Origin: Candidatus Pollutiaquabacter aromativorans | GTDB lineage: Bacteria; Bacteroidota; Bacteroidia; AKYH767-A; 2013-40CM-41-45 | Assembly: GCA_049177215.1 (NCBI GenBank) | Contig: CP185379.1 | Coordinates: forward strand, 1,192,150 to 1,256,149 | Length of the DNA: 64,000 nucleotides | Reading direction: 5' to 3' | In this document: in pieces, positions 1,108 to 46,990 of the stretch | How positions within the stretch are numbered: the first letter of the stretch is position 1 | Layout of the letters: the number at the start of each line of letters is the position of its first letter | Notes under the pieces: model-generated | The model's database searches: none | The model's input: only the letters and a program-made list of their open reading frames with translations | What the model was told of the DNA's origin: nothing | Made by a program: the position numbers and the translations under genes

Positions 1108-2400
1108 TTAATCCGACCATCGCCCAAATCGATCACGCGCGGCCTGCTCGAGCAGTTCGCGGTCATCGGGATGAGCGATGCGGATCAATTCGCGGGCGCG
1201 TTCCCGCAGGTTTTTCCCGAACAGGTAGGCAATACCGTGTTCGGTGACCACATAGTGGACGTGGGCGCGCGTCGTTACGACTCCGCCACCTTGCTTCAGG
1301 AAGGGCGTTATCCGGGAAACACCTTTCTGTGTACGCGAGGGCAGCGCGATGATGGCTTTCCCGCCCTTTGACAAGGCCGCGCCACGCATGAAATCCATCT
1401 GACCACCCACACCGGAATACTGGTAAGTGCCGATAGAGTCCGAACAGATCTGTCCGGTCAGGTCGATTTCAATGCAACTGTTGATGGCCACCATCTGGTG
1501 GTTCTGACGGATAACGGATACTTCATTGACATAGTCGATGTCCAGAAAGGTGAAGAACGGGTTGTCATGAACATAGTCGTACAGTTTGCGGCTGCCCAGA
1601 CAAAATCCGGTCACCACCCGTCCGGGGTGTTTTGTTTTGAGTTTATTGTTGATGACACCCGATTCGATCAGCGGAATGATCCCATCGGAGAACATTTCCG
1701 TATGAACGCCCAGATCACGGTGGTTGCCGAGACAGCTCAGCACCGCGTCCGGAATGGCGCCTATGCCCATTTGCAGGGTAGCGCCATCGGGGATCAGTTC
1801 GGCGATGTATTCGCCGATTTTTCGTTCGGTAGCGGTGACCCGATCGCCGAATACCGTCTCGTGCAAGGGCTCCGGCGCATAAACGAGTGCATCCAGTTCG
1901 CTGACATGAATGAGTCCATCGCCGTGGGTTCGTGGCATAAGTGGATTGACCTGCGCAATGACATGTTCCGCTGTATTGACGGCGGCTCGGGCGATATCCA
2001 CAGAGGTGCCAAGGGATACGAAGCCATGCGCGTCCGGCTCCGATACCTGCACCAACGCGACATCGAGGGGCATGATACCGGTGCGGAATAGGTCCGGGAT
2101 TTCGCTGAGAAAAACCGGAATGTAGTCGGCACGCCCTTCGTTCACGGCGGGACGGATCGGTTCGGAAACAAAGAATGAATTGATGTTGAAGTTGCCCTCA
2201 TACCGGGATTCGGCAATCGGGAAGTCCCCCAGTACACTGATACAGACGATTTCCACGTCCTTTAGTCGTGGAGCTTCCCCGGCCAGTGCCCGTACAAGAT
2301 GGGTAGGAGTCGCCGCGCTGCCGTGAATGAAGACCCGCTGACCGGACTGGACTACCTGGAGCGCCTCCGAAGCCGGGAGGTAATCTACTTTGTATTGCAT
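1108..2400 (-). CDS. acetyl-CoA hydrolase/transferase family protein (4-hydroxybutyrate/succinyl-CoA:acetate CoA-transferase-like)
   Basis: Long ORF matching the family over its whole length (e.g. GIGAIPDAVL...SGGQMDFMRGAALSKGGKAIIALPS). Start placed at internal MQYKVDYLPASEALQ (about 431 aa, typical size) rather than the upstream ORF-track Met at 2502. Confidence 0.8.
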   Translation of the reverse strand: MQYKVDYLPASEALQVVQSGQRVFIHGSAATPTHLVRALAGEAPRLKDVEIVCISVLGDFPIAESRYEGNFNINSFFVSEPIRPAVNEGRADYIPVFLSEIPDLFRTGIMPLDVALVQVSEPDAHGFVSLGTSVDIARAAVNTAEHVIAQVNPLMPRTHGDGLIHVSELDALVYAPEPLHETVFGDRVTATERKIGEYIAELIPDGATLQMGIGAIPDAVLSCLGNHRDLGVHTEMFSDGIIPLIESGVINNKLKTKHPGRVVTGFCLGSRKLYDYVHDNPFFTFLDIDYVNEVSVIRQNHQMVAINSCIEIDLTGQICSDSIGTYQYSGVGGQMDFMRGAALSKGGKAIIALPSRTQKGVSRITPFLKQGGGVVTTRAHVHYVVTEHGIAYLFGKNLRERARELIRIAHPDDRELLEQAARDRFGRWSD

Positions 2401-5102: not shown

Positions 5103-5228
5103 GTTGAAAGGAGTGCAAATTTACCCATTCCGGTGGATTCATGGGGGCAAAACACTATTTTCGCGCTGGAATTGCGAGAAAAGTCAGACTTCTTCTTTAG
5201 CAACCTATAGCTTAGCAACCCTATTTCC

Positions 5229-6110
5229 ATGAGTGTACTCGTAAACAAGAACAGCAAGATCATCGTCCAGGGCTTCACCGGGAGCGAAGGAACCTTCCAC
5301 GCTTCGCAAATGATCGAATACGGAACCAATGTCGTAGGCGGCGTCACCCCGGGAAAAGGCGGCACTTCGCACCTCGAACGTCCGGTCTTCAACACGGTAG
5401 CCGATGCGGTCCGCCAGACCGGTGCGGATGTCTCCATCGTATTCGTACCGCCGGCTTTTGCAGCCGATGCGATCATGGAAGCGGCCGAATCCGGCATCAA
5501 GCTGGTTGTTGCGATCACGGAGGGTATCCCGACGCGCGATATGATCCAGGTAAAAGAATACCTGGCCGACAAACAAACCCGTCTCATCGGGCCGAATTGC
5601 CCGGGTGTGATTACCGCGGGTGAATGCAAGGTTGGCATCATGCCGGGCTTCGTGTTCAAACCCGGGAAAGTCGGTATCGTCTCCAAATCCGGAACCCTGA
5701 CTTACGAAGCTGCCGACCAGGTCGTGCGGGCCGGCATGGGAATCTCTACCGCCATCGGTATCGGAGGTGATCCGATCATCGGAACCACCACCCGGGAAGC
5801 TGTCGAACTCTTTATGAACGACCCGCTTACGGAAGGCATCATTATGATCGGCGAGATCGGCGGAAGCCTGGAAGCGGAAGCAGCCCGCTGGATCAAGAAG
5901 AACGGCACCAAACCCGTAGTCGGATTCATCGCCGGTCAAACGGCGCCTCCCGGACGTCGCATGGGACATGCCGGTGCGATCATCGGGGGAGCGGATGATA
6001 CCGCAGAAGCAAAAATGAAGATCATGCGCGAATGCGGCATTCACGTTGTCGATACCCCCGCCTTCATCGGCGTTACGATGGCCAAGGTGTTGAAAGGGGT
6101 GACGGCCTGA
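5229..6110 (+). CDS. sucD: succinate--CoA ligase [ADP-forming] alpha subunit
   Basis: Full-length match to SucD ([15 protein letters not shown]...[20 protein letters not shown]...[11 protein letters not shown]). Confidence 0.9.
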
Positions 6111-6124
6111 GGGGGGAAGATTTG

Positions 6125-6276
6125 TAATTAGTAATTAGTAATTCGGGAAAGTTGAAGCTGGAAGGTTGAAAGTTGAATGTTGAAAGTTGAAGGACAACTC
6201 TTCACTCTTCACTATTCACTCTTCACTATTCGCTATTCGCTATTCACTATTCACTATTCACTGTTCACTGTTCACT
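6125..6276. repeat. three adjacent heptamer tandem arrays in the sucD-fabG intergenic region: (TAATTAG)x2.5 at 6125-6143, (GTTGAAN)x5 at 6151-6193, (NTTCACT/TTCGCT)x11 at 6198-6276
   Basis: Read directly: taattagtaattagtaatt ... gttgaagctggaaggttgaaagttgaatgttgaaagttgaagg ... ctcttcact cttcact attcact cttcact attcgct attcgct attcact attcact attcact gttcact gttcact. The array ends 3 nt before the fabG ATG. Confidence 0.8.
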
Positions 6277-6279
6277 AAA

Positions 6280-7026
6280 ATGAAACTACTCTCCGGAAAA
6301 ACCGCCCTTGTCACCGGTGCATCGAAAGGCATTGGTCGCGGGATCGCCCTTAAGTTGGCGGAGCACGGCGCCAATGTCGCGTTCACGTATCTCTCTTCGG
6401 TTGAGAAAGGGCAAGCACTTGAGGCCGAACTGGCGGCATTCGGTATCAAAGCCAAAGGCTATCGAAGTGACGCCTCCGACTTCAAAGCCTCCGAAGAACT
6501 GGTGAATGCGATCGTAAGCGACTTCGGTTCACTCGAGGTCATCGTCAACAATGCGGGCATCACCCGTGACGGTTTGCTCATGCGCATGACGGAGGAGCAA
6601 TTCAACGAAGTCATCCGGATCAACCTGAATTCGGTTTTCAACGTTACCAAAGCTGCGATCCGCCAGTTGCTCAAACAGAAGCAGGGCAGCATTATCAATA
6701 TTTCGAGCGTCGTAGGCGTAAAGGGAAATGCCGGCCAGGCGAATTATGCCGCTTCCAAGGCCGGGATAATCGGCTTCACCAAATCTGTTGCCCTGGAATT
6801 GGGGTCCCGCAACATCCGCTGCAACGCTATCGCACCGGGATTCATCGAGACGGAAATGACGGGAGTCCTCAACGAGGAAACCGTCAAGCAATGGCGCGAA
6901 GCCATTCCGCTCAAGCGCGGCGGCACACCCGACGATGTGGCTAACGCCGTGATCTTCCTGGGATCCGAGCTGTCGGCTTATATCACCGGACAGGTCCTGA
7001 ACGTAGATGGTGGGATGTTGACCTGA
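6280..7026 (+). CDS. fabG: 3-oxoacyl-[acyl-carrier-protein] reductase
   Basis: MKLLSGKTALVTGASKGIGRGIA...NAG...SVVG..YAASKAG is the SDR/FabG signature. The ORF-track start at 6187 would read through the heptamer repeat, so the canonical FabG N-terminus at 6280 was chosen. Confidence 0.85.
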   Translation: MKLLSGKTALVTGASKGIGRGIALKLAEHGANVAFTYLSSVEKGQALEAELAAFGIKAKGYRSDASDFKASEELVNAIVSDFGSLEVIVNNAGITRDGLLMRMTEEQFNEVIRINLNSVFNVTKAAIRQLLKQKQGSIINISSVVGVKGNAGQANYAASKAGIIGFTKSVALELGSRNIRCNAIAPGFIETEMTGVLNEETVKQWREAIPLKRGGTPDDVANAVIFLGSELSAYITGQVLNVDGGMLT

Positions 7027-7040
7027 TACAGTTTGAATGA

Positions 7041-7085
7041 AAAAAGAAACGCCATGCATCATACTCAGCATGGCGTTTCGTTTTA
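7041..7085. terminator. bidirectional rho-independent terminator between convergent fabG and the 7099..7620 gene
   Basis: Perfect 10-bp stem aacgccatgc / gcatggcgtt (7048-7057 and 7069-7078) with an 11-nt loop, followed by TTTCGTTTTAT. There is an A-run on the other side. Confidence 0.6.
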
Positions 7086-7098
7086 TAGCGGTAGTCGA

Positions 7099-7620
7099 TC
7101 AATCGCACCATTGAAGCTTGTCCAGCTCACGGGTGTGTACCTGAATCCTGATTACCTCATGGGCAGGACTGACCCAGACCAACAACCAACCATAAGGTCG
7201 CTTGAAATGGTAGATGCTCGTAATGGGTGAATCCTCGTAATCCTGTTTGTCCGTAACGCGGACAGGTTGTCCGAGAACTTCCTCGAGGTAGGCTTCGTCG
7301 TGGCCGAACAGCTGATAGTTGATCTTGCCACTGAAACCGGGCAGGACCTCAAAGCAATTCAATCCGGTGTACATGCGCAGCCCCATGTTCTCGAAATCCA
7401 AGCCACCGCCGCAGAACTCTTCCCCGCCTTCTTCCGTGAATTGAGAATAGCAGGGAAAGTACTTCTTGAGGCTATCCACTGGAGCGTCGGGTCGCCATTT
7501 ATTGACCTTTCCGGAATCCAGGTCCAGCTTCAACGTGTCACAAATCGGCTTTTTGTCCTCCGCTTTGACGTTGGAGAAGAAGGCGAACAGGATCAAAGAA
7601 AGCAAGATAGCGCTGCGCAT
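7099..7620 (-). CDS. hypothetical secreted protein (signal peptide, Cys-containing)
   Basis: N-terminal MRSAILLSLILFAFFSNVKA signal peptide. No recognisable domain. Confidence 0.45.
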   Translation of the reverse strand: MRSAILLSLILFAFFSNVKAEDKKPICDTLKLDLDSGKVNKWRPDAPVDSLKKYFPCYSQFTEEGGEEFCGGGLDFENMGLRMYTGLNCFEVLPGFSGKINYQLFGHDEAYLEEVLGQPVRVTDKQDYEDSPITSIYHFKRPYGWLLVWVSPAHEVIRIQVHTRELDKLQWCD

Positions 7621-12250: not shown

Positions 12251-12391
12251 TGTTACCGTACAAAACGGTCCATTCACCCCGGAATGTGCGATAAACAGGC
12301 CTGAATTATGCTCCGTTTACCAAAGTAAATTGCAGCCCGGCAGGTGCTGAAGGTATTATTGTTCAACAATCAACTAAAAACACCTGTCGAT

Positions 12392-35659: not shown

Positions 35660-36164
35660 CTACTGACACAATAGACCCTTGATTATCAAGATGATAGTCG
35701 AGGGTTTTTTGTTGGTGGACGCCTGTGTGGGCACTCTTTTGCTTTGCTTGCCTTTTCCAAGAACCTCTCGAGGGCGGATTTGCTTGTGCACAGCTCGTTA
35801 AGCTTTTTCAAAGTACGAACGCTTACAAACTTCTTCTAAAATATTGGGGTGTTAAGAATGCCTGGGTCGGTAGTATTCCTTAAATGAAACTTTCATCTGG
35901 ATAATTTATATTAGCAAGGCAATCTTTATGGTCGCGCCCTTTTGCTTGACAGCAAAGGTTCCTACTCAGATGCGAAACCATTTAACGGCATTCGCAATTT
36001 TCGCCATTGTGTCATATTACAATGGAATCTAAATGTTGTTATGATATAGCAGCTGGATTGTTTTAAAAACAGTTTCCGAAGAAGGCTTCTGATAATATAA
36101 CTCGAACTTTCTGTTACCCCTGGATGATTAATTAGGTATTTCCCAACTTCTAAATAAACTAGCT

Positions 36165-37748
36165 ATGCGAGTCTTGCTCTTTCAATGGTTTTTACTAATT
36201 ACAATACAGATTATTAATGCCACTTCTTCGATTGCTCAGCAGCAACAGGGGATAGAGTGGGCCGTGTCTTATGGAGGAGCTAGCATTGACGTAGGAAACT
36301 CTATTCAACTTACCAGCGATGGTGGTTATGTTGCAATTGGAAAGAGTCGTTCAAGTGATGGTGACATCACTGTAAATCACGGCAGGGAAGATTACTGGGT
36401 TGTAAAGATCTCGAGCGATGGGAGTATTCAATGGCAAAAGTCTTTTGGCGGATCATCAGAGGATAATGGAAGATTCGTCCAGGGCACCTCAGATGGAGGA
36501 TACATTTTGATTGGATTTACAATGTCTAATGATGGCGACGTAATTGGAAATCATGGTGGTTATGATTGTTGGGTTGTAAAGCTGGATAGCATAGGGGATA
36601 TTGAATGGCAGAGAGCTTTAGGAGGATCGGGCATGGATGCCGGTGTATCAATTATTCAAACTTCCGATGGAGGTTATGCCATGATTTCTGTGTCAGATTC
36701 TAATGATGGAGATGTATACGGGAACAATGGCCAAACAGACTTTTGGGTTGTGAAACTTTCAGAATTAGGTAACATTGAATGGCAAAAATCTTTAGGGGGG
36801 AGTAGTTCTGAAACGGCATCCTCTATTCAACAAACTGCTGATGGGGGATACATTGTATCGGGTCAGAGTAGTTCCAATGATGGCGATGTTACTGGAAACC
36901 ACGGGGACTCTGATTTTTGGATAGTTAAATTGTCGAGTTTCGGAGATATACAATGGCAGAATTCGTACGGAGGGGCAGCTTATGATCATGGTCTGTCGAT
37001 TCAAGAAACTGCAGATGGAGGGTATATAACATGTGGTTTTGTTGAATCAAATAATGGTAACGTGACTTTTAATCACGGAAGTCGTGATGTTTGGGTACTT
37101 AAGTTATCTAATAATGGTGATTTGGAATGGGAAAAGTCATTTGGAGGCACTGGGGATGATTGGGGGCATGAAATTCAAATCACTTCTGATGGCGGATATG
37201 TGATTCTCGGACACAGTAATTCTAATGATGGAGATGTATTTAATATTCATGGATCAAGGGATTATTGGGCGATAAAGTTGTCTAATTTTGGTGTATTGGA
37301 GTGGCAAAAGACCTTAGGTGGTTCAGAATCTGACATAGGGCATTCTATTCGGCAAACCCTTGACGGTGGGTTTATCCTAATTGGTGAAAGTCAATCAAAT
37401 GATGGCGATGTGACTGGAAATCATGGTGCTTCCGACTATTGGATTGTAAAGTTAAATGCAACAATTGGGTTGTCCGAGTTTTCTGACTTTGAATGGACAA
37501 TTGTTTCCCCAAATCCAGTAACTAGTAGATTAACCATTAAAGTATCACTTACAAATTCTGAAGATCTTCAAGTTTATATACGGGACTTGCTTGGTCATGT
37601 AGTTTTAGAACCAATAAAATTGAATAATGTCAGCGGATTGGTTGAACAATCAATATCAACAACTATGCTTTCCGACGGAATGTACTTGCTTGATATTGTT
37701 GGGCTAAAATGGAGAAAAACTAAGCGAATAATCATAGTTCAAAGATGA
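36165..37748 (+). CDS. T9SS cargo protein with eight tandem ~48-aa SBBP-type beta-propeller repeats and a type-A C-terminal sorting domain
   Basis: Signal peptide. Repeat (I/L)EWQKS.GGS..D.G.SI.QTSDGGY...G.S.SNDGDV.GNHG..D.WVVKL occurs 8 times. C-terminal SPNPVTSRLTIKV...GMYLLDIVGLKWRKTKRIIIVQR. Confidence 0.7.
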   Translation: MRVLLFQWFLLITIQIINATSSIAQQQQGIEWAVSYGGASIDVGNSIQLTSDGGYVAIGKSRSSDGDITVNHGREDYWVVKISSDGSIQWQKSFGGSSEDNGRFVQGTSDGGYILIGFTMSNDGDVIGNHGGYDCWVVKLDSIGDIEWQRALGGSGMDAGVSIIQTSDGGYAMISVSDSNDGDVYGNNGQTDFWVVKLSELGNIEWQKSLGGSSSETASSIQQTADGGYIVSGQSSSNDGDVTGNHGDSDFWIVKLSSFGDIQWQNSYGGAAYDHGLSIQETADGGYITCGFVESNNGNVTFNHGSRDVWVLKLSNNGDLEWEKSFGGTGDDWGHEIQITSDGGYVILGHSNSNDGDVFNIHGSRDYWAIKLSNFGVLEWQKTLGGSESDIGHSIRQTLDGGFILIGESQSNDGDVTGNHGASDYWIVKLNATIGLSEFSDFEWTIVSPNPVTSRLTIKVSLTNSEDLQVYIRDLLGHVVLEPIKLNNVSGLVEQSISTTMLSDGMYLLDIVGLKWRKTKRIIIVQR

Positions 37749-37798
37749 TGACTGTCCATACTACTAAGCCCGAATTAAAATAGTTACTATAAGTTGCC

Positions 37799-39250
37799 AT
37801 GTTCGAACAAACCTTCAAAAACATCGACGACATCCTCCACAAAGACGCCGGTTGCGGTAGCGAACTGGACTATGTGGAACAGACTTCATGGGTGTTGTTT
37901 CTAAAATACCTGGATGACCTGGAGAAAGACCGCGCCACGGCTGCTGAACTGACGGGTAAGACGTACACGCCCATCATCGACAAAAAGTACCAGTGGTCGG
38001 TCTGGGCGGCGCCCAAGGGTAAGGATGGCAAACTGGACCACCACAAGGCGATGACCGGTGACGACCTGACCGACTTCGTGAACGGCAAGCTGTTTCCCTA
38101 CCTGAAAAAGTTCAAGACGGATGCGGACAGCGCGGATACCATCGAATACAAGATTGGCGAAATCTTCAGCGAACTGAAAAACCGCCTGCAAAGCGGATAT
38201 AACCTGCGGGAGGTCATCAACCTCATTGACGAGTTGCGTTTCCGTACCCACGCAGAGAAGCACGAAATGAGCCACCTCTACGAGGAGAAGATCAAGAACA
38301 TGGGCAACGCCGGGCGCAACGGCGGCGAGTACTACACGCCGCGCCCGCTCATCACCACCATCGTGAAGGTGATTGACCCGAAGATTGGCGAGAAGATCTA
38401 CGACGGCGCCTGCGGCTCGGCAGGCTTCCTGTGCGAAGCTTTTGCCTACCTCAACAAGAAAGGGCTGTCCAGCAAGGATACAGTGACTCTCCAGAAGAAG
38501 ACCTTCTATGGCAAGGAAAAGAAATCGCTGGCCTACATCATCGGCATCATGAACATGATCCTGCACGGTGTGGAAGCCCCCAACATCATACACACCAATA
38601 CACTGGCCGAAAACCTCGCGGACATACAGGAAAAAGACCGCTACGATGTGGTGCTTGCCAATCCGCCTTTTGGTGGAAAGGAGCGTGCCGAAGTGCAACA
38701 AAACTTCCCGATTAAAACAGGCGAAACCGCTTCGCTCTTTTTACAGCACTTCATTAAAATATTGAAAGCAGGTGGCAAGGCAGGTGTGGTTATTAAAAAC
38801 ACTTTTTTGAGTAATACCGATAACGCCTCTGTCGCCATCCGAAAGACCTTGTTGGAGAGTTGTAACCTTCATACGGTGCTGGATTTGCCAGGTGGCACGT
38901 TTACAGGAGCTGGTGTAAAAACGGTAGTGCTGTTTTTTGAAAAAGGTAAGCCCACAAAGAAGGTATGGTATTATCAGCTGAACCTTGACCGTAATTTAGG
39001 TAAGACCAACCCGCTCAATGAAAAAGACTTGGCGGACTTCGTGCAGCTCCAAAAATCCTTCAAGGATAGCGAGAACTCTTGGACGATAAACGTAAAGGAC
39101 ATCGACCAGAGCACGTTTGACTTGAGCGTGAAGAATCCGAATAAAAAGCAGGAAGTTGCCTTGCGTCAACCGCAAGAAATTTTAGAGGAGATGAAGGCGC
39201 TGGATGAAGAGAGTGCGGAAATCTTTAATTCAATATTGGAGCTGTTATGA
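37799..39250 (+). CDS. hsdM: Type I restriction-modification system, DNA methyltransferase subunit M
   Basis: HsdM N-terminal domain (WVLFLKYLDDLEK), SAM motif I (DGACGSAGFL) and catalytic NPPFGG (VLANPPFGGKE). 483 aa. Stop overlaps the hsdS start (ATGA). Confidence 0.9.
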   Translation: MFEQTFKNIDDILHKDAGCGSELDYVEQTSWVLFLKYLDDLEKDRATAAELTGKTYTPIIDKKYQWSVWAAPKGKDGKLDHHKAMTGDDLTDFVNGKLFPYLKKFKTDADSADTIEYKIGEIFSELKNRLQSGYNLREVINLIDELRFRTHAEKHEMSHLYEEKIKNMGNAGRNGGEYYTPRPLITTIVKVIDPKIGEKIYDGACGSAGFLCEAFAYLNKKGLSSKDTVTLQKKTFYGKEKKSLAYIIGIMNMILHGVEAPNIIHTNTLAENLADIQEKDRYDVVLANPPFGGKERAEVQQNFPIKTGETASLFLQHFIKILKAGGKAGVVIKNTFLSNTDNASVAIRKTLLESCNLHTVLDLPGGTFTGAGVKTVVLFFEKGKPTKKVWYYQLNLDRNLGKTNPLNEKDLADFVQLQKSFKDSENSWTINVKDIDQSTFDLSVKNPNKKQEVALRQPQEILEEMKALDEESAEIFNSILELL

Positions 39251-39732
39251 AGCAGGGTTGGGAAATAAAGAAGTTGGGAGAGATTGTTGATATTGTTAAT
39301 GGAAGGAATCAATCTTCAGTGCTCTCTGAAAATGGACCATATCCTATTTACGGAAGTGCTGGTAATTTGATGGGCTATTCAACGGAGTATTTGTGTGATA
39401 AAGGCACCACTATAATCGGAAGAAAGGGGAATATCTCTACCCCAATCTTCATTGATGAAAGATTTTGGAACGTAGATACTGCCTTTGGATTATTCCCCAA
39501 AAATGGAAGCATCCCCAAGTTTATTTATTATTTATGTCTTACCATTGATTTCAAAAGTCGAAACAGGGGTACAACTATTCCGAGTTTAGTCAAATCAGAC
39601 TTATTGACCATTGATGTCCCATTTGTTAAGTCCCTCCCCGAACAACAACGCATTGTTTCCATATTAGACGAGTGCTTTGCCGCCATAGCCAAGGCAAAAG
39701 CCAATGCCGAAGAAGAACCTCAAAAACGCTAA
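39247..39732 (+). CDS. hsdS: Type I R-M specificity subunit S, N-terminal target-recognition-domain half (ends in the central conserved region)
   Basis: MKQGWEIKKLGEIVDIVNG... is a typical HsdS start. It ends ...ILDECFAAIAKAKANAEEEPQKR* inside the central conserved spacer. Confidence 0.75.
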   Translation: MKQGWEIKKLGEIVDIVNGRNQSSVLSENGPYPIYGSAGNLMGYSTEYLCDKGTTIIGRKGNISTPIFIDERFWNVDTAFGLFPKNGSIPKFIYYLCLTIDFKSRNRGTTIPSLVKSDLLTIDVPFVKSLPEQQRIVSILDECFAAIAKAKANAEEEPQKR

Positions 39733-40348
39733 GGAACTTTTTGAGAGTTATTTGCAGGGGGTGTTTGAGAATGGGGATTGGGACACGAAAACCATTGAAC
39801 TGGTATGTGATGAAATATTTGCAGGTGGTGATGCGCCCCAAAACAATTTTTCATTGGAGTCCAATAAAAAACATAATATTCCTATATACGCAAATGCTGT
39901 AAAAGATAGAGGTCTGTACGGCTATACTGACTTTGCAAGAGTTAACAAGCCTTGTGTGACAATAGCAGCAAGGGGGAGTGGTACAGGGCACACGGAATTA
40001 AGGAATGAACCATTTTTGCCTATTGTAAGGCTCATTGTATGTATTCCAAACTGCAAAATAATCACAGCCGAATTCCTCAAATACACGATAGATAATTTAG
40101 TGATTCAGCGCAGCGGTAGTGCGATTCCACAACTAACTGTTCCGATGATAAAGGACTATATTATACCAGTTCCACTTATTGAAGAGCAAAAACAGATTAT
40201 TGAAAAGGCAGAAGCACTTAAAGAACAAAAAGCAAGACTCGAAAATGTATATCAAAAGAAGTTGGAAGACTTGGAGGAGTTGAAGAAGGCCATCCTTCAA
40301 AAGGCATTTGCTGGGGAGTTGAAAACAGGAAAACCGGTTGCGGCATGA
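39704..40348 (+). CDS. hsdS: Type I R-M specificity subunit S, C-terminal target-recognition-domain half (different frame, overlaps previous ORF by 29 nt)
   Basis: Continues the conserved central/C-terminal regions (NLKNAKELFESYLQ ... EEQKQIIEKAEALKEQKARLENVYQKKLEDLEELKKAILQKAF). Together the two ORFs make a normal two-TRD HsdS. Confidence 0.7.
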   Translation: MPKKNLKNAKELFESYLQGVFENGDWDTKTIELVCDEIFAGGDAPQNNFSLESNKKHNIPIYANAVKDRGLYGYTDFARVNKPCVTIAARGSGTGHTELRNEPFLPIVRLIVCIPNCKIITAEFLKYTIDNLVIQRSGSAIPQLTVPMIKDYIIPVPLIEEQKQIIEKAEALKEQKARLENVYQKKLEDLEELKKAILQKAFAGELKTGKPVAA

Positions 40349-41235
40349 GTTGGAACGAAAAAAGCATGTTAAATGAGCCATCCGGAGAATGGGGTGGTCC
40401 CTGGACTGAAAAAAAGCTTGAAGCTTTTTCAAAATATGTGTGGTCTTACCTAACCATTATGAAGAAGTTCCCTTTTTGGAAAACCATCTACTTTGATGGC
40501 TTTGCGGGAAGCGGAACAAGGGATAAGCGGGCGAATGCTCATTTGATGCAACAACTAAAAATCACAGACGAAGAAGAAGAAACTTATAAAGGTGCTGCCG
40601 AAAGGGTTTTAGGTTTGCAAGAATTGGGGTTTGACTTTTACTATTTTATTGACAAAAACGACACTTCGCTGAATAAATTGAAAACAAAACTGGGTGATAG
40701 ATTTAAAGATAAAACGATTGTTTACCGGTCAGGAGATGCGAACGTTCAAATAGCCGAGCTTGCAAAAGCCTTGCGAACCAAAGATTACGCAGCATTGGTT
40801 TTTCTTGACCCTTTCGGCATGCAAATAGATTGGAATTCCATAGAAGAATTAAAAGATACACGTTCTGATGTATGGATTTTAGTTCCAACGGGCGTTATTG
40901 TAAATCGTCTATTGGACAGAGCAGGAAAATTGGAGTTTAGCGATAAACTCCAATCATTTTTCGGCTTGCCAATTGAAGAAATCAAAACACATTTCTACGA
41001 AGAAAAAAAAGTGCAGACACTTTTCGGAGTAGAAGAAATCATCACAAAGGTTTCTCGACCTATTGAGAAAATTTCAAGTTTGTATGCCGAACGAATGAAA
41101 ACTATCTGGAAGCACGTTACGGATGAACCACTAGTATTGAAGAACCGAAACGGCTCACCTATATTTCATTTCGTATTTGCATCAAATAATCAGAATGCAA
41201 AAAAGATTGCTAAACAAATTATTCATAACATTTAA
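40345..41235 (+). CDS. TcmP-like (three-Cys-motif partner protein) family protein; unknown function
   Basis: 296 aa. N-terminal W..KKLEAF.KYV..Y, glycine-rich YFDGFAGSG and VFLDPFG motifs as remembered for the TcmP family (TIGR04474). Start overlaps the hsdS stop by 4 nt and it is followed 3 nt later by a Gp37/Gp68 gene. Family assignment is from memory, not a search. Confidence 0.55.
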   Translation: MSWNEKSMLNEPSGEWGGPWTEKKLEAFSKYVWSYLTIMKKFPFWKTIYFDGFAGSGTRDKRANAHLMQQLKITDEEEETYKGAAERVLGLQELGFDFYYFIDKNDTSLNKLKTKLGDRFKDKTIVYRSGDANVQIAELAKALRTKDYAALVFLDPFGMQIDWNSIEELKDTRSDVWILVPTGVIVNRLLDRAGKLEFSDKLQSFFGLPIEEIKTHFYEEKKVQTLFGVEEIITKVSRPIEKISSLYAERMKTIWKHVTDEPLVLKNRNGSPIFHFVFASNNQNAKKIAKQIIHNI

Positions 41236-41238
41236 CCT

Positions 41239-41964
41239 ATGGCACAATCAAGTATAGAATGGACTGAAATGACTTGGAATCCAACAACGGGTTGCGATAA
41301 AATTTCGGCAGGTTGCAAATTCTGTTATGCGGAAGTAATGGCAAGGCGATTAAAAGCAATGGGCGTTGAAAAATATGCCAATGGCTTTGAGTTGGCTATT
41401 CACGAAGATGAATTGCAAACACCTTACACTTGGAAAAAATCGAAAATGGTATTTGTAAATTCAATGAGCGACTTATTTCATAAAGACGTGCCCGTTGAAT
41501 TTATTCAAAAGGTATTCAGAGTAATGAAAGAAAATCCGCAACACGTTTTTCAAATTTTGACCAAACGGGCTGATTTGCTTTTATATTATGATAAAGAAGG
41601 ATTGTTGGAATGGGCGCACAACATCTGGATGGGTGTTTCGGTAGAAAGCGAAAAAGTGATGAACCGGATTGACCTTTTGCGTCAAACCAATGCAAGAGTA
41701 AAATTTTTAAGTTGCGAGCCGTTAATAAGCCCTCTGCCAAATTTGAATTTAAAAGGCATTGATTGGGTAATAGTAGGCGGTGAAAGCGGAAGAACGCCAA
41801 GACCCATGAAAAAGGAATGGGTAATGGAAATTAAAGAACAATGTAGGAAAAAAGATGTAGCGTTTTTCTTTAAGCAATGGGGCGGAACGAACAAAAAGAA
41901 AACAGGCAATCTGCTTAACGGCAAAAAATATTTAGAAATGCCAGAAATAGTTGAATCGAAATGA
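41239..41964 (+). CDS. phage protein Gp37/Gp68 family (DUF5131), three-Cys-motif radical-SAM-like protein
   Basis: IEWTEMTWNPTTGCDKISAGCKFCYAE carries the family-defining N-terminal Cys triad (C-x6-C-x2-C). 241 aa. Stop overlaps the hsdR start (ATGA). Confidence 0.75.
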   Translation: MAQSSIEWTEMTWNPTTGCDKISAGCKFCYAEVMARRLKAMGVEKYANGFELAIHEDELQTPYTWKKSKMVFVNSMSDLFHKDVPVEFIQKVFRVMKENPQHVFQILTKRADLLLYYDKEGLLEWAHNIWMGVSVESEKVMNRIDLLRQTNARVKFLSCEPLISPLPNLNLKGIDWVIVGGESGRTPRPMKKEWVMEIKEQCRKKDVAFFFKQWGGTNKKKTGNLLNGKKYLEMPEIVESK

Positions 41965-44312
41965 ACGAGGCAGAAACACGCGCTGAACTAATCGACCCCA
42001 AGCTCAAGGCTTGCGGCTGGGGCGTGGTGGAAGGCTCCAAAATCCTGCGAGAGTATAAAATCACCGCGGGGAGGATTCAGGCTGGCGGAAGAGGCAAGCG
42101 TGATATTGCAGATTATGTGCTGGTCTATAAAGGCATCAAGCTGGCGGTAGTGGAAGCGAAAAGCGCTTCGGTGGAAGTGGGTGAGGGTGTGATGCAAGCC
42201 AAGAAGTACGCGGAGAAACTGCAAACCGGCACCACGTACAGCACCAACGGGAAGGAAATCTACCAGATTTGCATGGAGACCGGCGCTGAGGGCTTGGTGC
42301 CGGAGTTCCTCAGCCCCGACCAGCTATGGAACAAGACTTTTTCGCCGGCCGGTGCCGAACCGATAGCTACCGCCCAATGGCGCGAGCGATTCACCAATGT
42401 TCCTTTTGAAGACAAAGGAGGCAGCTGGCAGCTTCGCTACTATCAGGAAATCGCCGTGCAACGCGCCATTGAGGCCATTGCACAAAACAAAAACCGAATC
42501 CTGCTCACCCTTGCCACGGGAACAGGCAAAACGGCTATCGCCTTCCAAATCGCCTGGAAGCTATACCAAACCCGCTGGAACCTGAGACGGGATGGCAGCC
42601 GCAGACCGCGCATCCTGTTCCTGGCCGACCGCAACATCCTCGCCGATCAGGCCTACAACGCCTTTTCGGCGTTTCCGGAAGATGCGCTGGTGCGCATTAA
42701 GCCGAATGAGATTAGGAAAAAGGGCAAAGTGCCGACCAATGGCAGCGTCTTCTTCACCATCTTCCAGACCTTCATGAGCGGGCAGGATGCAGCGGGTAAG
42801 CCCACCCCATATTTCGGAGAGTACCCACCGGACTACTTCGATTTCATCATCATTGACGAGTGCCACCGCGGCGGAGCAAACGATGAAAGCAACTGGCGCG
42901 GGATTCTGGAGTATTTCAGTCCGGCGGTACAGTTGGGTCTGACCGCAACCCCCAAGCGACAGGACAACGTGGATACGTATGCTTACTTCGGCGAACCGGT
43001 GTACGTGTATTCGCTCAAAGAGGGCATCAACGACGGCTTCCTCACCCCGTTCAAAGTAAAACGCATCCAGACGACCCTCGACGACTACCGCTATACGTCC
43101 GACGATACCGTGGTAGAGGGCGAAATCGAGGAGGGTAAATTGTACGAGGAGAAGGACTTCAACCGCACCATTGAGATCGTGGAACGGGAGGCCAAGCGGG
43201 TGAATGTGTTTCTTTCAGAGGCAAACCAACACGAAAAAGCAATAATCTTCTGTGCTAACCAAGGGCACGCCGCCTTGATACGGGATTTAGTAAATCAGCA
43301 CGCTAAGCACAAAGACCCCTTTTACTGCGTACGAGTGACTGCCAATGACGGGGAGGAAGGGGAGCGCCTGCTGCGGGAGTTTCAGGACAATGAAAAGACG
43401 TTGCCGACGATTCTGACCACCTCGCAAAAACTCTCCACCGGGGTTGATGCACGGAACATTCGAAACATCGTCCTGCTGCGCCCCGTCAACTCGATGATCG
43501 AGTTCAAGCAAATCGTCGGCCGGGGTACCCGCCTGTTCGATGGGAAGGAGTTTTTCACCATCTACGATTTTGTCGATGCCTACCGCCACTTTTCCGATCC
43601 CGAATGGGATGGGGAACCGGAGGGCGAAGTGGACAAGGTCGTCAGCGATCACGGTCAAGAGAAATACGATCCAAGAGCTCCCCGTGAGCCTGAGGAAGCA
43701 GGAGATCCCAAGGAACCTCGGCGGAAAGTAAAGGTTAAGCTACGAGACGGTAAAGCGCGGGAGATACAGCACATGGTGTCCACCTCGTTTTGGAGTGCGG
43801 ACGGAAGGCCGATCTCTGCACAAGAATTCCTGAGCAATCTGTTCGGAGAACTGCCGAAACTTTTCAAAGACGAAGAGGAACTGCGAAAGCTGTGGAGCAA
43901 TCCATTGACCCGCCGTACGCTGCTTGAAAAGCTGGAAGAGGCCGGTTTCCCCAAGGCAGACCTGCTCACCTTGCAGCAGTTGGTCGATATGGAAAAGAGC
44001 GACCTGTATGATGTGTTGGAATATGTTTTCAATGGCGACTATATCGCCATGACAAGAGAAGCCAGAGCCAAAGCAGCCGAAGCGACCATTTTTGCCCTGC
44101 TCAACGACAAGCAAAAGGAGTTCATTGCATTTGTGCTCAGTAAATACATTGAAACCGGCGTGGATGAGCTTGACCAGGATAAGCTGCCTATCCTGTTGAC
44201 GAACAAATATCAGTCACTGGAAGACGCTAAAGCGGTCTTGGGGGATGTGGCGAATATCAGTCGGTTGTTTGTGGAGTTTCAGGAGCATCTTTATAAGCAG
44301 CGGGTTGCGTAA
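41961..44312 (+). CDS. hsdR: Type I restriction enzyme R subunit (EcoEI-like, 783 aa)
   Basis: HsdR_N PD-(D/E)xK domain (DIADYVLVYKGIKLAVVEAK), SF2 helicase motifs (LATGTGKT, DECHRG, later motifs) and an EcoEI-R-type C-terminal domain. Confidence 0.9.
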   Translation: MNEAETRAELIDPKLKACGWGVVEGSKILREYKITAGRIQAGGRGKRDIADYVLVYKGIKLAVVEAKSASVEVGEGVMQAKKYAEKLQTGTTYSTNGKEIYQICMETGAEGLVPEFLSPDQLWNKTFSPAGAEPIATAQWRERFTNVPFEDKGGSWQLRYYQEIAVQRAIEAIAQNKNRILLTLATGTGKTAIAFQIAWKLYQTRWNLRRDGSRRPRILFLADRNILADQAYNAFSAFPEDALVRIKPNEIRKKGKVPTNGSVFFTIFQTFMSGQDAAGKPTPYFGEYPPDYFDFIIIDECHRGGANDESNWRGILEYFSPAVQLGLTATPKRQDNVDTYAYFGEPVYVYSLKEGINDGFLTPFKVKRIQTTLDDYRYTSDDTVVEGEIEEGKLYEEKDFNRTIEIVEREAKRVNVFLSEANQHEKAIIFCANQGHAALIRDLVNQHAKHKDPFYCVRVTANDGEEGERLLREFQDNEKTLPTILTTSQKLSTGVDARNIRNIVLLRPVNSMIEFKQIVGRGTRLFDGKEFFTIYDFVDAYRHFSDPEWDGEPEGEVDKVVSDHGQEKYDPRAPREPEEAGDPKEPRRKVKVKLRDGKAREIQHMVSTSFWSADGRPISAQEFLSNLFGELPKLFKDEEELRKLWSNPLTRRTLLEKLEEAGFPKADLLTLQQLVDMEKSDLYDVLEYVFNGDYIAMTREARAKAAEATIFALLNDKQKEFIAFVLSKYIETGVDELDQDKLPILLTNKYQSLEDAKAVLGDVANISRLFVEFQEHLYKQRVA

Positions 44313-44362
44313 TTAGGTAATTAAAATTCTCAGTTATTTAACCATATTGCTCAGTCTGGCTA

Positions 44363-45118
44363 ATGAAAAATCTTACAGTAAGTAGTTTCGACGAAATAAT
44401 TAATATATTGACTAACGATAAATATGGTTGTGGCCATGTTGTTTATCGTGGAGTTTCTGATTCTAAGAAACATGACTTAAGACCGTCTGTTGGAAGGATA
44501 GATCCCTCATTGTTAAAGGGCAAAGATCTTCAAGAGTTGGAGCGTGAGATGCTAACCCGTTTTAAATTGAGAGCAAACTTTGAAATTAGTCCGCAACCTA
44601 AGGATGATTGGGAGTGGTTGGCTTTAGCTCAACATCACGGCCTGCCAACAAGACTTCTTGACTGGACATTTAGTCCATTAATTGCAATCTACTTTGCATG
44701 TAAACCCATTCTCAATGACAATGGTTTATTTGATAGTTCTAACAGTGACGCAAGAGCTGTTTACGCACTACATACATGTTCGTACCTAGACACCAGTTGC
44801 TTAGATCCATTTTCAGTTAGTGAATGCTGCTTATTTTACCCCCCTCACATCACAAAGCGTATATCTGGTCAGTTTGGTCTATTCTCTGTTCAGCCAGACC
44901 CCATGACAGCATTCGATTCTCAGTTAGAGGAGTCGGATGAAAACTGGGTAGATAAGATTGAAATTCCACTGGACCTAGCTATTGAAGCTCAAAAGAAGCT
45001 GTTTCTTTTGGGAATAAGGCATGAAACTATTTTTCCAGATTTGGAAGGCTACACATATGACCTAAGAGTAAAGTTCAATATTGCTTCATGTCATACTTTG
45101 AAAAATCTTTGCTTGTAG
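44363..45118 (+). CDS. FRG-domain protein
   Basis: VVYRGVSDSKKHDLRPSVGR and WEWLALAQHHGLPTRLLDWTFSPLIAIYFA match the FRG-domain signature. 251 aa. Confidence 0.65.
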   Translation: MKNLTVSSFDEIINILTNDKYGCGHVVYRGVSDSKKHDLRPSVGRIDPSLLKGKDLQELEREMLTRFKLRANFEISPQPKDDWEWLALAQHHGLPTRLLDWTFSPLIAIYFACKPILNDNGLFDSSNSDARAVYALHTCSYLDTSCLDPFSVSECCLFYPPHITKRISGQFGLFSVQPDPMTAFDSQLEESDENWVDKIEIPLDLAIEAQKKLFLLGIRHETIFPDLEGYTYDLRVKFNIASCHTLKNLCL

Positions 45119-45277
45119 TGTCCTTTTAAAGGCCCAATTGGTTCTCCGACATGATGAATTTCACAAATGGGCGCAGCAGATTCTAATTTAACTCGGTGAA
45201 TTGGCAGGAAAATATTTGGGCTAAACTCTTTGGGTATTTATAAAAACTATATATTAGTCATCAAACCTAACGTCTTT

Positions 45278-46990
45278 ATGAAAACTAAAGTTCTACTTTC
45301 CTTGCTGATTTGTATCAGCATCTCGGTGTCGGCATTATCTCAAGCAACCCCCTCTTATGTGCCAACCAACGGATTGGTCGGCTGGTGGCCTTTTAATGGG
45401 AATGCAGATGATGCGAGTGGGAATGGGAATAACGGGACATTTTCTAACGGCAGTTATGTGCCTAGTATATGGGACATGGCCGCTGAATTTAATGGTAATA
45501 GTTCACTGATAACTATACCAAGCAGCAGTAGCTTTGATACTGATTCATTTACCTTTTCTTTAAGAGTGAATTTGTCTTCACACTTAGGGCACAATGAAAT
45601 TCAGTTTGGTATTCCAGGTGATTCGCTGAGATGGTCTATTGGTTGGGATCCTAATCAGTTATATCTATTACCGATGACCTGTGCAGGAACTTATGGGACA
45701 GGGCAAAATTATCCTCAAGTACCTATAAATGTCGGAACCTGGTATCATATGGTGTTTGTTAATCATGGAATTTATACTGATTATTATTTGGATGGGGTGT
45801 TTTTGGGAACATCCGATATGACAACCCCTTTGAATTGTTGGAGCCCCAGTATGAACCTATACCTGGGCGGAGACATTGGCGGGGGGGCCATCGAGTATTT
45901 TGCTGGTCTAATGGATGAATGCGGATTTTGGAACCGTGCCCTCACCCAACAGGAAATCACAAATCTTTATAATGCCACAACTTCTCCTCCTTGCAACCCG
46001 CTGCCAATTAATTTAATGAATGGACTTGTGGGCTACTGGCCTTTTTGTGGGAATGCGAATGATGAGTCAGGTAATGGAAACAATGGAACCGTAAATGGAG
46101 CAACCATGGCGGCTGATAGGTTTAGCAATGCAGGTAATGCGTTTTCATGGAACACTTCTCCGGATAAAATAGTGGTGCCTAATAGCAATAGCCTACAACT
46201 TACTTCAGCTTTCTCGGTTGGTCTCTGGTTGAAGCCAATTAATAATACTTACGGAACCGGCCCCAATTATCATGCAATAGTAGAGAAGTGGGGGGCAGCT
46301 AACGACGCATCTTATCTATTTGAGCTATTTACTAATGGTATCCCAGCATTCCGAACTCATAATTCTGGAAGTGATGCGGTGATTCAAGCAAGACAAGCGG
46401 TTCCTTTTGATGTTTGGACACACCTTCTTTATACTCAAAATGCAGATACCGGGAGACTATATGTGAATGGCCTTTTGGATACTGTTGTAATGGGAATGAT
46501 AACCCCCATGGTTATGAATAATGACCTGCTATTTGGAAGTAATGATGCTTACAATGTTGGTTCTTCCGGGGATGCATACGAAGGATTAATAGATGATATC
46601 GGTATTTGGAATCGGGTGCTCAGCCAGTCTGAAGTCAACCAAGTATATAACCAAAATATCTGCTTTCAAACCATCACCGTTACCGACACCCTGCTTATCA
46701 ATGTAAATATAACTAACCTGAATCCGGTCACTTATCAGAATACAATCAAGGTCTTCCCGAATCCGACCAATGACCATATCACGGTCGACTTCGGGCCGAA
46801 CTACGCGTCGTTGACGGGTTACAGCTTGCGCATCGACAACACCCTTGGACAGACGATGTTTACCTCCCCTGTGCAGCAGCAATCTGCCTATATCGACCTA
46901 AACACCTGGACAGGTGTGGGGGTCTATTTTGTCTATCTACTGGACGCTCAGGGCCATACCGTGGATGTGAGGAAAATTGTATTGCAGTAG
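45278..46990 (+). CDS. T9SS cargo protein with two LamG/concanavalin-A-like lectin domains and a type-A C-terminal sorting domain
   Basis: Signal peptide MKTKVLLSLLICISISVSALSQA. Duplicated LVGWWPFNGNADDASGNGNNGT / LVGYWPFCGNANDESGNGNNGT LamG hallmarks. C-terminal IKVFPNPTNDHITVDF...GVYFVYLLDAQGHTVDVRKIVLQ. Confidence 0.7.
   Translation: MKTKVLLSLLICISISVSALSQATPSYVPTNGLVGWWPFNGNADDASGNGNNGTFSNGSYVPSIWDMAAEFNGNSSLITIPSSSSFDTDSFTFSLRVNLSSHLGHNEIQFGIPGDSLRWSIGWDPNQLYLLPMTCAGTYGTGQNYPQVPINVGTWYHMVFVNHGIYTDYYLDGVFLGTSDMTTPLNCWSPSMNLYLGGDIGGGAIEYFAGLMDECGFWNRALTQQEITNLYNATTSPPCNPLPINLMNGLVGYWPFCGNANDESGNGNNGTVNGATMAADRFSNAGNAFSWNTSPDKIVVPNSNSLQLTSAFSVGLWLKPINNTYGTGPNYHAIVEKWGAANDASYLFELFTNGIPAFRTHNSGSDAVIQARQAVPFDVWTHLLYTQNADTGRLYVNGLLDTVVMGMITPMVMNNDLLFGSNDAYNVGSSGDAYEGLIDDIGIWNRVLSQSEVNQVYNQNICFQTITVTDTLLINVNITNLNPVTYQNTIKVFPNPTNDHITVDFGPNYASLTGYSLRIDNTLGQTMFTSPVQQQSAYIDLNTWTGVGVYFVYLLDAQGHTVDVRKIVLQ

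Follow-up and report, generated by a model that had tools for sequence, protein, structure and literature searches.

Copy-number-variable heptanucleotide arrays in the sucD-fabG spacer of Candidatus Pollutiaquabacter aromativorans

Introduction

Among the long simple sequence repeats (SSRs) of bacteria, heptamers are the most abundant class in most genomes, and polymerase slippage has been given as their cause (Mrazek 2007, cited by PMC4679880 and PMC4692102). With regard to function, a single case has been dissected, that of a pathogen adhesin. Described examples include the arrays in the 5' untranslated region (5'-UTR) of the Haemophilus influenzae genes hmw1A and hmw2A, the TAACTGA repeats, the short tandemly repeated repetitive sequences (STRRs) of cyanobacteria and the arrays of Xanthomonas and Nostoc. 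Here we analyze a 64,000-nt stretch of the Candidatus Pollutiaquabacter aromativorans genome (contig CP185379.1; hereafter the window, whose positions serve as coordinates), in which the spacer between sucD and fabG holds three different heptanucleotide arrays. This class of repeats is already known but poorly understood, and the locus is a clear example of it.

Unstructured, CA- or pyrimidine-rich translational leaders that act independently of a Shine-Dalgarno (SD) sequence include the CAA region of the tobacco mosaic virus (TMV) omega leader and the S1-dependent AU/CU-rich enhancers. In Bacteroidia, ribosomes work without SD pairing; low secondary structure and adenines at positions -3, -6, -12 and -13 tune initiation instead (PMC6847099).

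Results

Three heptanucleotide arrays in one spacer

The spacer measures 169 nt, from the sucD stop codon ending at 6110 to the fabG ATG at 6280. Three consecutive period-7 arrays can be read directly from its sequence, (TAATTAG)x3, (GTTGAAN)x6 and (NTTCRCT)x11, and all the features of the locus lie on the forward strand:

5229..6110, +, sucD, upstream gene, alpha subunit of succinate--CoA ligase (NF004230, 442 bits, cut-off 336)
6117..6124, +, -7-like box AAGATTTG, matching 5/6 specified positions of TAnnTTTG; candidate promoter element of fabG, located upstream of the three arrays
6120..6145, +, array 1, units TAATTAG TAATTAG TAATTCG at 6125-6145 with an ATTTGTA half-unit in front
between arrays 1 and 2, +, five bases GGAAA, read from the sequence
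6151..6192, +, array 2, six C-poor units GTTGAAG CTGGAAG GTTGAAA GTTGAAT GTTGAAA GTTGAAG, the one variant being CTGGAAG
6193..6199, +, 7-nt linker GACAACT between arrays 2 and 3, loop of a predicted imperfect hairpin
6200..6276, +, array 3, eleven G-poor NTTCRCT units with first bases C C A C A A A A A G G; the fifth and sixth read TTCGCT
6277..6282, +, AAA and the fabG ATG, which with the array register place A at -3, -6 and -13
6177..6278, +, upstream open reading frame (ORF) of 33 codons from ATG to TAA, running through array 3 and ending 1 nt before the fabG ATG; its translation is putative
6280..7026, +, fabG, downstream gene, 3-oxoacyl-ACP reductase (TIGR01830 equivalog, 333 bits, cut-off 298)

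Tandem Repeats Finder returned one period-7 row for each array: 6120-6143 for array 1 (3.4 copies, score 41), 6147-6191 for array 2 (6.4 copies, score 55) and 6197-6277 for array 3 (11.6 copies, score 113). In 100 first-order Markov resamples of the window, taken as a control for chance, a mean of 0.95 period-7 rows was found per resample, and no row scored above 42. Chance is thus far exceeded by arrays 2 and 3. The score of array 1 is by itself borderline, and we regard this array as a real repeat because it is polymorphic in copy number, with 3 or 6 units. The sequence TTCACTNTTCACT occurs 9 times in the window against 0.24 expected, and all nine occurrences are at the spacer. The spacer arrays show the near-perfect head-to-tail repetition of 5-11 nt units, beyond chance length, that characterizes long heptanucleotide SSRs. 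An earlier note, made from the letters of this DNA alone, had described three different heptamer arrays packed between the two genes, the last ending 3 nt before the fabG start codon. Both statements are correct, the last unit ending at 6276 and no purine-rich SD sequence lying between it and the ATG. The units read here number three in array 1, six in array 2 and eleven in array 3, two of the eleven being TTCGCT.

An Rfam search at a permissive E-value gave no match at E<=1 in 5900-6500. The search for further TTCACT or GTTGAA arrays that the earlier note had called for was made within the 64-kb window and detected no other TTCACT array and, for GTTGAA, a single one-mismatch match, on the minus strand at 12362.

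The arrays differ in copy number between strains

The locus was compared among 25 assemblies of the same species-level cluster, 94.6-99.4% identical to the window over up to 6.7 kb (blastn). Array 3 has alleles of 8, 9, 11, 12, 13, 14 or 15 units, the mode of 12 being found in 14 assemblies, and alleles of 3 or 6 units and of 3-6 units occur for array 1 and array 2, respectively. These combine into eleven distinct complete spacer haplotypes with lengths of 155, 169, 176, 183, 190 and 197 nt, so that all differences are multiples of 7. Unit gains and losses are located in runs of identical units (ATTCACT from three to seven copies, GTTCACT from none to four); being confined to such runs and proceeding in 7-nt steps, the changes therefore fit what replication slippage predicts.

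The window carries the 11-unit allele. A 12-unit allele is present in its nearest relatives, L008 and L009, whose sucD and fabG do not differ from those of the window and which are 99.1-99.4% identical to it over 6.7 kb; the closest pair (99.4% over this distance) differs by one unit. One identical 12-unit haplotype is on the other hand common to 12 assemblies that diverge at up to ~2% of the compared flanking sites. Because unit number varies between strains and yet this haplotype is shared by such divergent assemblies, the locus is a strain-level variable-number tandem repeat. A metagenome scan for further alleles yielded one contig only, with a 9-unit allele. The array could be used as a strain-typing marker. 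Invariance across strains would have spoken for a neutral microsatellite in the terms of the earlier note, and copy number is not invariant. Of the slipped-strand contingency switch suggested there, the whole-unit gain and loss is borne out in all three arrays, whereas an on/off switch is not supported, the 12-unit haplotype being common to assemblies so divergent.

In one metagenome-assembled genome, L007 (GCA_016713765.1), a 1.2-kb IS481-family insertion sequence (IS) element at 1674-2893 is found inside array 2 and separates fabG from sucD. Its transposase gene lies at 1890-2810 on the minus strand, and its terminal inverted repeats are TGTAATAGTTAG and CTAACTAGTACA. The insertion leaves 2 GTTGAA and 12 TTCACT units adjoining fabG. 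Provided that L007 represents a viable strain, neither array 1 nor the greater part of array 2 nor the long hairpin would be needed in cis.

The arrays are non-coding and mislead gene callers

The copy numbers found in the 25 assemblies cover all three residues modulo 3, and FabG starts at the same residue in relatives whose spacers are unrelated. For these two reasons the arrays are non-coding at this locus. Array 3 contains no stop codon in any frame, and public gene calls give FabG proteins of 272, 280 or 287 aa (P0003, P0004, P0005-P0007; loci L138-L140) against a true length of 248. These N-terminal extensions arise because the TTCACT array is stop-free, and their additional length reflects the repeat number; the array thus leads gene callers to invent them. 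A genuine coding extension, as offered by a 279-aa ORF from the TTG at 6187, was rejected, since its frame shifts with copy number and the family alignment begins at the ATG at 6280. The identical FabG protein is present on many contigs from metagenome-assembled genomes of Bacteroidota/Bacteroidia, many of them from wastewater metagenomes. The upstream ORF starting at 6177 changes with the allele in the same manner: with 12 units its stop codon is a TGA overlapping the ATGA of the fabG start, and with 13 units it is fused in frame to fabG.

The earlier note had deduced the non-coding status from the fact that 7-nt units are not compatible with codons. The outcome is right here, but the argument is unsafe in general, as shown by the gene calls above and by a Nitrospirae contig (L099) in which (AAAGTT)n-(GTTCACT)n arrays are coding. 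On this contig, the arrays at 1500-1623 and 2310-2381 (minus strand) supply two signal peptides with their Lys-rich and their hydrophobic segments; cleavage of one of these peptides occurs before a CbiM-like N-terminus, MHISEGILP.

A proposed leader with almost no predicted structure

Array 3 together with the start region has a predicted folding energy of -1.7 kcal/mol over 104 nt. For positions -60..+30 of fabG the prediction is -2.7 kcal/mol. Among 46 gene starts of the window (mean -18.3, sd 7.4) none folds more weakly, and 0/300 random 90-nt segments reached -3 kcal/mol. Three of the adenine positions favorable in Bacteroidia, -3, -6 and -13, are occupied (positions from PMC6847099). That the array leaves no room for a conventional spacing before the ATG, as had been remarked, is no difficulty in a class that does not use SD sequences (PMC6847099).

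Arrays 2 and 3 are predicted to pair imperfectly over 81 nt, in a hairpin of -18.5 kcal/mol (z = -2.1 relative to mononucleotide shuffles) in which each unit contributes 4 Watson-Crick pairs and one G-U pair, whereas the whole spacer folds no better than shuffles (z = -0.36). An estimate of the unpaired probability of the start region gave no clear trend with copy number and was not used.

Candidate promoter elements around the arrays

A scan of 5200-7200 for sigma-70 promoters and terminators detected no promoter and nothing exceeding chance. The exact Bacteroidetes -7 box TAnnTTTG is absent from the spacer; in the window such boxes lie 13-20 nt upstream of two start codons, those of mnmE and of the ORF at 7099-7620. 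The sole -7-like box of the spacer, AAGATTTG, is kept as GAGATTTG in the sister species, and another relative, L134, has a perfect TAGCTTTG box upstream of its fabG array. Taking the box at 6117-6124 together with those upstream of the relatives' arrays, we infer transcription of the arrays within the fabG leader. Since there is no terminator after sucD, read-through into fabG is also possible, and the arrays would therefore be located in the fabG leader by either route. A CTAWTTTCGC box is conserved upstream of sucD, and of its arrays, in all relatives; the counterpart in the window is the -7-like CTATTTTCGC (5154-5163), which is probably the promoter of sucD. A 15-nt direct repeat, TTAGCAACC(C)TAT (5197-5224), is situated a short way upstream of the sucD ATG.

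A different arrangement is seen in contigs of Prevotella and other Bacteroidales (L036, L059, L060, L096, L101, L118), where TTTTCAC arrays end immediately 5' of TAccTTTG -7 boxes and occupy the promoter-upstream region, not the leader.

Relatives carry other arrays at the same two start codons

The gene order mnmE-sucD-fabG is kept in relatives. In the sister species (L132), whose FabG is 97% identical at a third-codon-position divergence of 0.31-0.44, the three unit types of the spacer follow one another as in the window, with only 3-4, 3 and about 3 units, and two contigs of this species differ by one TAATTAG unit. It follows that short proto-arrays expanded in the window lineage. In other relatives the units are different. 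L134 has (CCTCCAA)x3.9 ending 3 nt before the fabG ATG and (TCAACCNG)x5.4 before sucD; L152 has (GAACACG)x9.7 before fabG and (AAACCCG)x5.9 before sucD; in L153, (ATTGAGTT)x9.4 is followed by (ACTAACA)x5.7 in the fabG leader and (GGGACGG)x3.4 by (CTAACCA)x6.6 in the sucD leader. The 275-nt spacer of L133 is purine-rich at first and C/A-rich near the ATG. No arrays were found in the leaders of L136 or at the neighboring genes of the relatives' loci.

Throughout this clade, the arrays that abut a start codon are all C-rich and G-poor on the sense strand (8 independent cases and the sister-species copy) and the distal arrays are G-rich in 4/4 cases. The G fraction at -40..-1 does not exceed 0.17 in any of the 14/14 sucD and fabG leaders of the clade, compared with 0.27 genome-wide. 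What is new at this locus is this comparative pattern, in which the start codons of sucD and fabG are preceded time and again by different G-poor arrays. An array in front of a core gene, held to be unusual in the earlier note, is by this comparison not so: relatives have arrays before both sucD and fabG, and heptamers immediately upstream of essential genes are on record (PMC4679880).

The sucD leader arrays abutting the ATG lie at L134:536-578, L152:490-530 and L153:381-465 and have 7/8-nt units. The four G-runs of the L153 (GGGACGG)x3.4 array could form a G-quadruplex.

TTCACT arrays across phyla

When one genome per species was scanned for three TTCACT units, at least 120 stretches in many phyla came up. 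The matches listed (120 loci) contain 411 period-7 Tandem Repeats Finder rows, and different heptamers often adjoin one another. Two general rules were considered for these listed matches. The first, a universal position of TTCACT arrays relative to gene starts, was rejected, a start being present within 150 nt in forward orientation for 54/148 arrays and in reverse orientation for 48. The second, that the G-poor array always points toward the ATG, is weak (29 vs 15, p = 0.05; 13 vs 8 without the selected class). Inverted pairs are by contrast strongly polarized among the listed matches, (AGTGAAN)n being the upstream partner of (NTTCACT)n in 20 loci and the downstream one in 3 (p = 2e-7). They mostly fill spacers between co-directional genes in many phyla, for example in L011, L018, L025, L028 and L043; other loci with such pairs include L073, L081, L101, L118, L120 and L124.

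Other features of the window

A low-GC island at 36000-46000 (0.38-0.41 vs 0.52-0.57 elsewhere) carries a type I restriction-modification system, with an EcoAI-family HsdR at 41961-44312 and an HsdM-like methyltransferase at 37799-39250. The island also encodes, at 36165-37748, a protein with a sorting domain of the type IX secretion system (T9SS).

Discussion

We consider it somewhat probable that this slippage-generated repeat cluster serves as an unstructured, SD-less leader of fabG whose copy number is tolerated or mildly modulatory. Replication slippage would create and resize the arrays, and these would lie in the transcribed fabG leader. Because array 3 runs up to the start codon, it would itself be the region of ribosome landing and initiation, and it would provide an almost structure-free, pyrimidine/A-rich sequence with adenines at the three positions given above. 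Selection in the clade would keep the composition of the leader, G-depleted and unstructured, and not the identity or number of the heptamers, so that arrays could be born, expanded and replaced; this would explain why units turn over rapidly at constant polarity. Copy numbers of 8-15 would be tolerated or would tune fabG translation mildly at most.

Several observations weigh against this explanation. The predicted hairpin between arrays 2 and 3 would be more in keeping with a regulatory leader that is structured than with a wholly unstructured one, and the arrays could sit upstream of an unrecognised promoter. The window contains a single such locus, so that this genome does not in general build its leaders from arrays, and the bias of G-poor arrays toward the ATG across phyla is weak (29 vs 15, then 13 vs 8). 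Finally, the spacer has diverged far less than synonymous sites between the window species and its sister, which could mean sequence-specific constraint. Strong purifying selection on the spacer, when considered as a candidate, was weakened by the flanking coding ends, where divergence also dips: in a comparison of window 5900-6400 with L132, third-position divergence, elsewhere 0.3-0.6, is down to 0.10 over the initial 30 codons of fabG, next to the spacer, and the last 60 nt of sucD show about 5 differences. A recombination tract may fit this dip equally well as constraint.

A stronger version, that the G-poor arrays of 7/8-nt units are a selected substitute for the SD sequence, acting as landing pads, and that slippage provides housekeeping genes with a heritable translation knob, appears to us rather unlikely. 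If it were true, a contingency-like mechanism would extend beyond pathogens and surface genes.

The opposite possibility, a selectively neutral microsatellite in a tolerant spacer with fabG expressed regardless by sucD read-through or another promoter, we likewise hold to be rather improbable. It would account for the abundance and clustering of heptamer arrays in intergenic DNA of many phyla (the 411 rows at the 120 loci listed), for the near balance of 54 forward and 48 reverse orientations among these matches, for the fast turnover of units between species and for the tolerated IS insertion in L007. Complete neutrality is nevertheless hard to square with the clade-wide G depletion: that every start-abutting array is C-rich and G-poor and every distal one G-rich would not be expected without selection on the leader. 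Moreover, an array at -4 to -80 of the start of an essential gene cannot be irrelevant to initiation.

It is unlikely, in our estimation, that the locus works like hmw of Haemophilus, as a rheostat or contingency locus based on copy number, in which the length of the 5'-UTR hairpin formed by arrays 2 and 3 would set fabG expression, possibly by RNase III processing; the same holds for the heritable expression variants that slippage would then produce. The polymorphism of all three arrays agrees with such a mechanism, as does the predicted hairpin (-18.5 kcal/mol, z = -2.1), of which the sister species keeps a 3-unit version. There is also a precedent, the 5'-UTR of hmw, where the (ATCTTTC)n hairpin has a G-rich arm, is cleaved by RNase III and makes expression inversely proportional to repeat number (PMC12721329). 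However, the spacer as a whole folds no better than shuffles, the hairpin arm ranges from 6 to 3 units and is reduced to 2 units at fabG by the IS in L007, and relatives often have arrays at fabG without a complementary arm (L134, L152). Switching is not fast either, since the 12-unit haplotype is identical across strains up to ~2% divergent in their flanks, and fabG is a housekeeping gene (TIGR01830), not of the surface, restriction-modification or host-interaction classes to which contingency genes typically belong.

Iterated sites for a sequence-specific factor are not supported, and we think it very improbable that a DNA-binding regulator recognizes AGTGAA/TTCACT or GTTGAA here, or, as a variant proposed for TAACTGA repeats, that an RNA- or single-stranded-DNA-binding protein with a ~7-nt footprint (cold-shock protein, S1) does so. 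Known regulators that bind heptamers, those of the PhoB and SARP families, use 10-11-bp phasing. Here the strict 7-bp period places successive sites on different faces of the helix, copy number is 8-15 within the species against about 3 in its sister, relatives carry entirely different units at the same position and hence share no recognition sequence, and the window has no second TTCACT array and, for GTTGAA, the single one-mismatch match, so that the fixed number, helical phase and conserved sequence of iterons or operators are all lacking. On the other side, unit sequences are identical in the sister species in spite of its third-position divergence, local conservation that may however stem from a recombination tract, and the array ends 3 nt before the ATG as do most TAACTGA sets in 'Maribeggiatoa', for which a post-transcriptional regulator has been proposed (PMC4679880).

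The locus offers a natural allelic series of 8-15 units before an essential gene, in a phylum that initiates without SD pairing. Should copy number affect translation, repeat-based tuning would extend to the core metabolism of environmental bacteria; should it be without effect, the locus would be a clean example of how a compositional constraint on leaders filters the microsatellites that survive.

Comparison with known systems

In the general survey of long SSRs by Mrazek, Guo and Shah (2007), as far as it is reported in later papers, the arrays are like those of the spacer in being intergenic tandem 7-nt units of beyond-chance length that change by whole units; that work presents genome statistics and assigns no role, whereas here three units share one leader and the last abuts a start codon. 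The STRRs of Calothrix PCC 7601, as described in PMC4692102, are likewise several different tandem heptanucleotides, three in Calothrix, in intergenic or intercistronic positions with no established function. They differ in being dispersed at high copy in heterocystous cyanobacteria with unit sequences of their own (STRR1-3); our host belongs to the Bacteroidota, as named in the sources of the identical FabG, and has a T9SS sorting domain and TAnnTTTG boxes in the window, its units are others, and its heptamers show no dispersal within the 64-kb window.

The arrays that Xanthomonas and Nostoc build from GGGAATC or GGGGA(T/C)T units (Rehm et al. 2015, PMC4692102) are intergenic, lie near ORF ends and vary in length at conserved positions between close relatives, as at the sucD-fabG locus. 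The inverted pairs of the Xanthomonas GGGAATC repeat are frequent and have their purine-rich arm first, the same polarity as the (AGTGAAN)n-(NTTCACT)n pairs (PMC4692102). Their units are G-rich and form G-quadruplexes, whereas the proximal array of the window is G-poor and its partner an imperfect complement only.

In hmw1A and hmw2A of H. influenzae, the (ATCTTTC)n array of the 5'-UTR is pyrimidine-rich, variable in copy number and provided with a purine-rich partner with which it forms a long hairpin (PMC12721329, PMC8262952), all of which recalls arrays 2 and 3. The hmw genes, unlike fabG, encode a surface adhesin under host selection, and their transcription, hairpin and RNase III cleavage have been demonstrated experimentally, whereas the fabG hairpin is predicted. 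No fewer than 11 repeats make up the hmw arrays, and the more there are, the lower is expression; at fabG, the partner arm appears dispensable in one strain.

The TAACTGA repeats of Beggiatoaceae, Cyanobacteria and five Bacteroidetes (MacGregor 2015, PMC4679880) are, like array 3, forward heptamer arrays ending a few nt before start codons that lack a ribosome-binding site. Essential genes are included among their targets, strains differ by indels in 7-nt steps, and a translational role has been proposed for them (PMC4679880). There, one and the same unit recurs at about 170 loci in each genome, pointing to a common binding factor; the units here, TAATTAG, GTTGAAN and NTTCACT, are different from TAACTGA and are specific to locus and species.

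Translational leaders of the TMV omega and S1-dependent type are defined by reporter assays, whereas the fabG leader is known by its composition, its position and its predicted lack of structure. What both have in common is that a repetitive, G-poor and structure-free sequence lies directly before the start codon and does not rely on an SD sequence.

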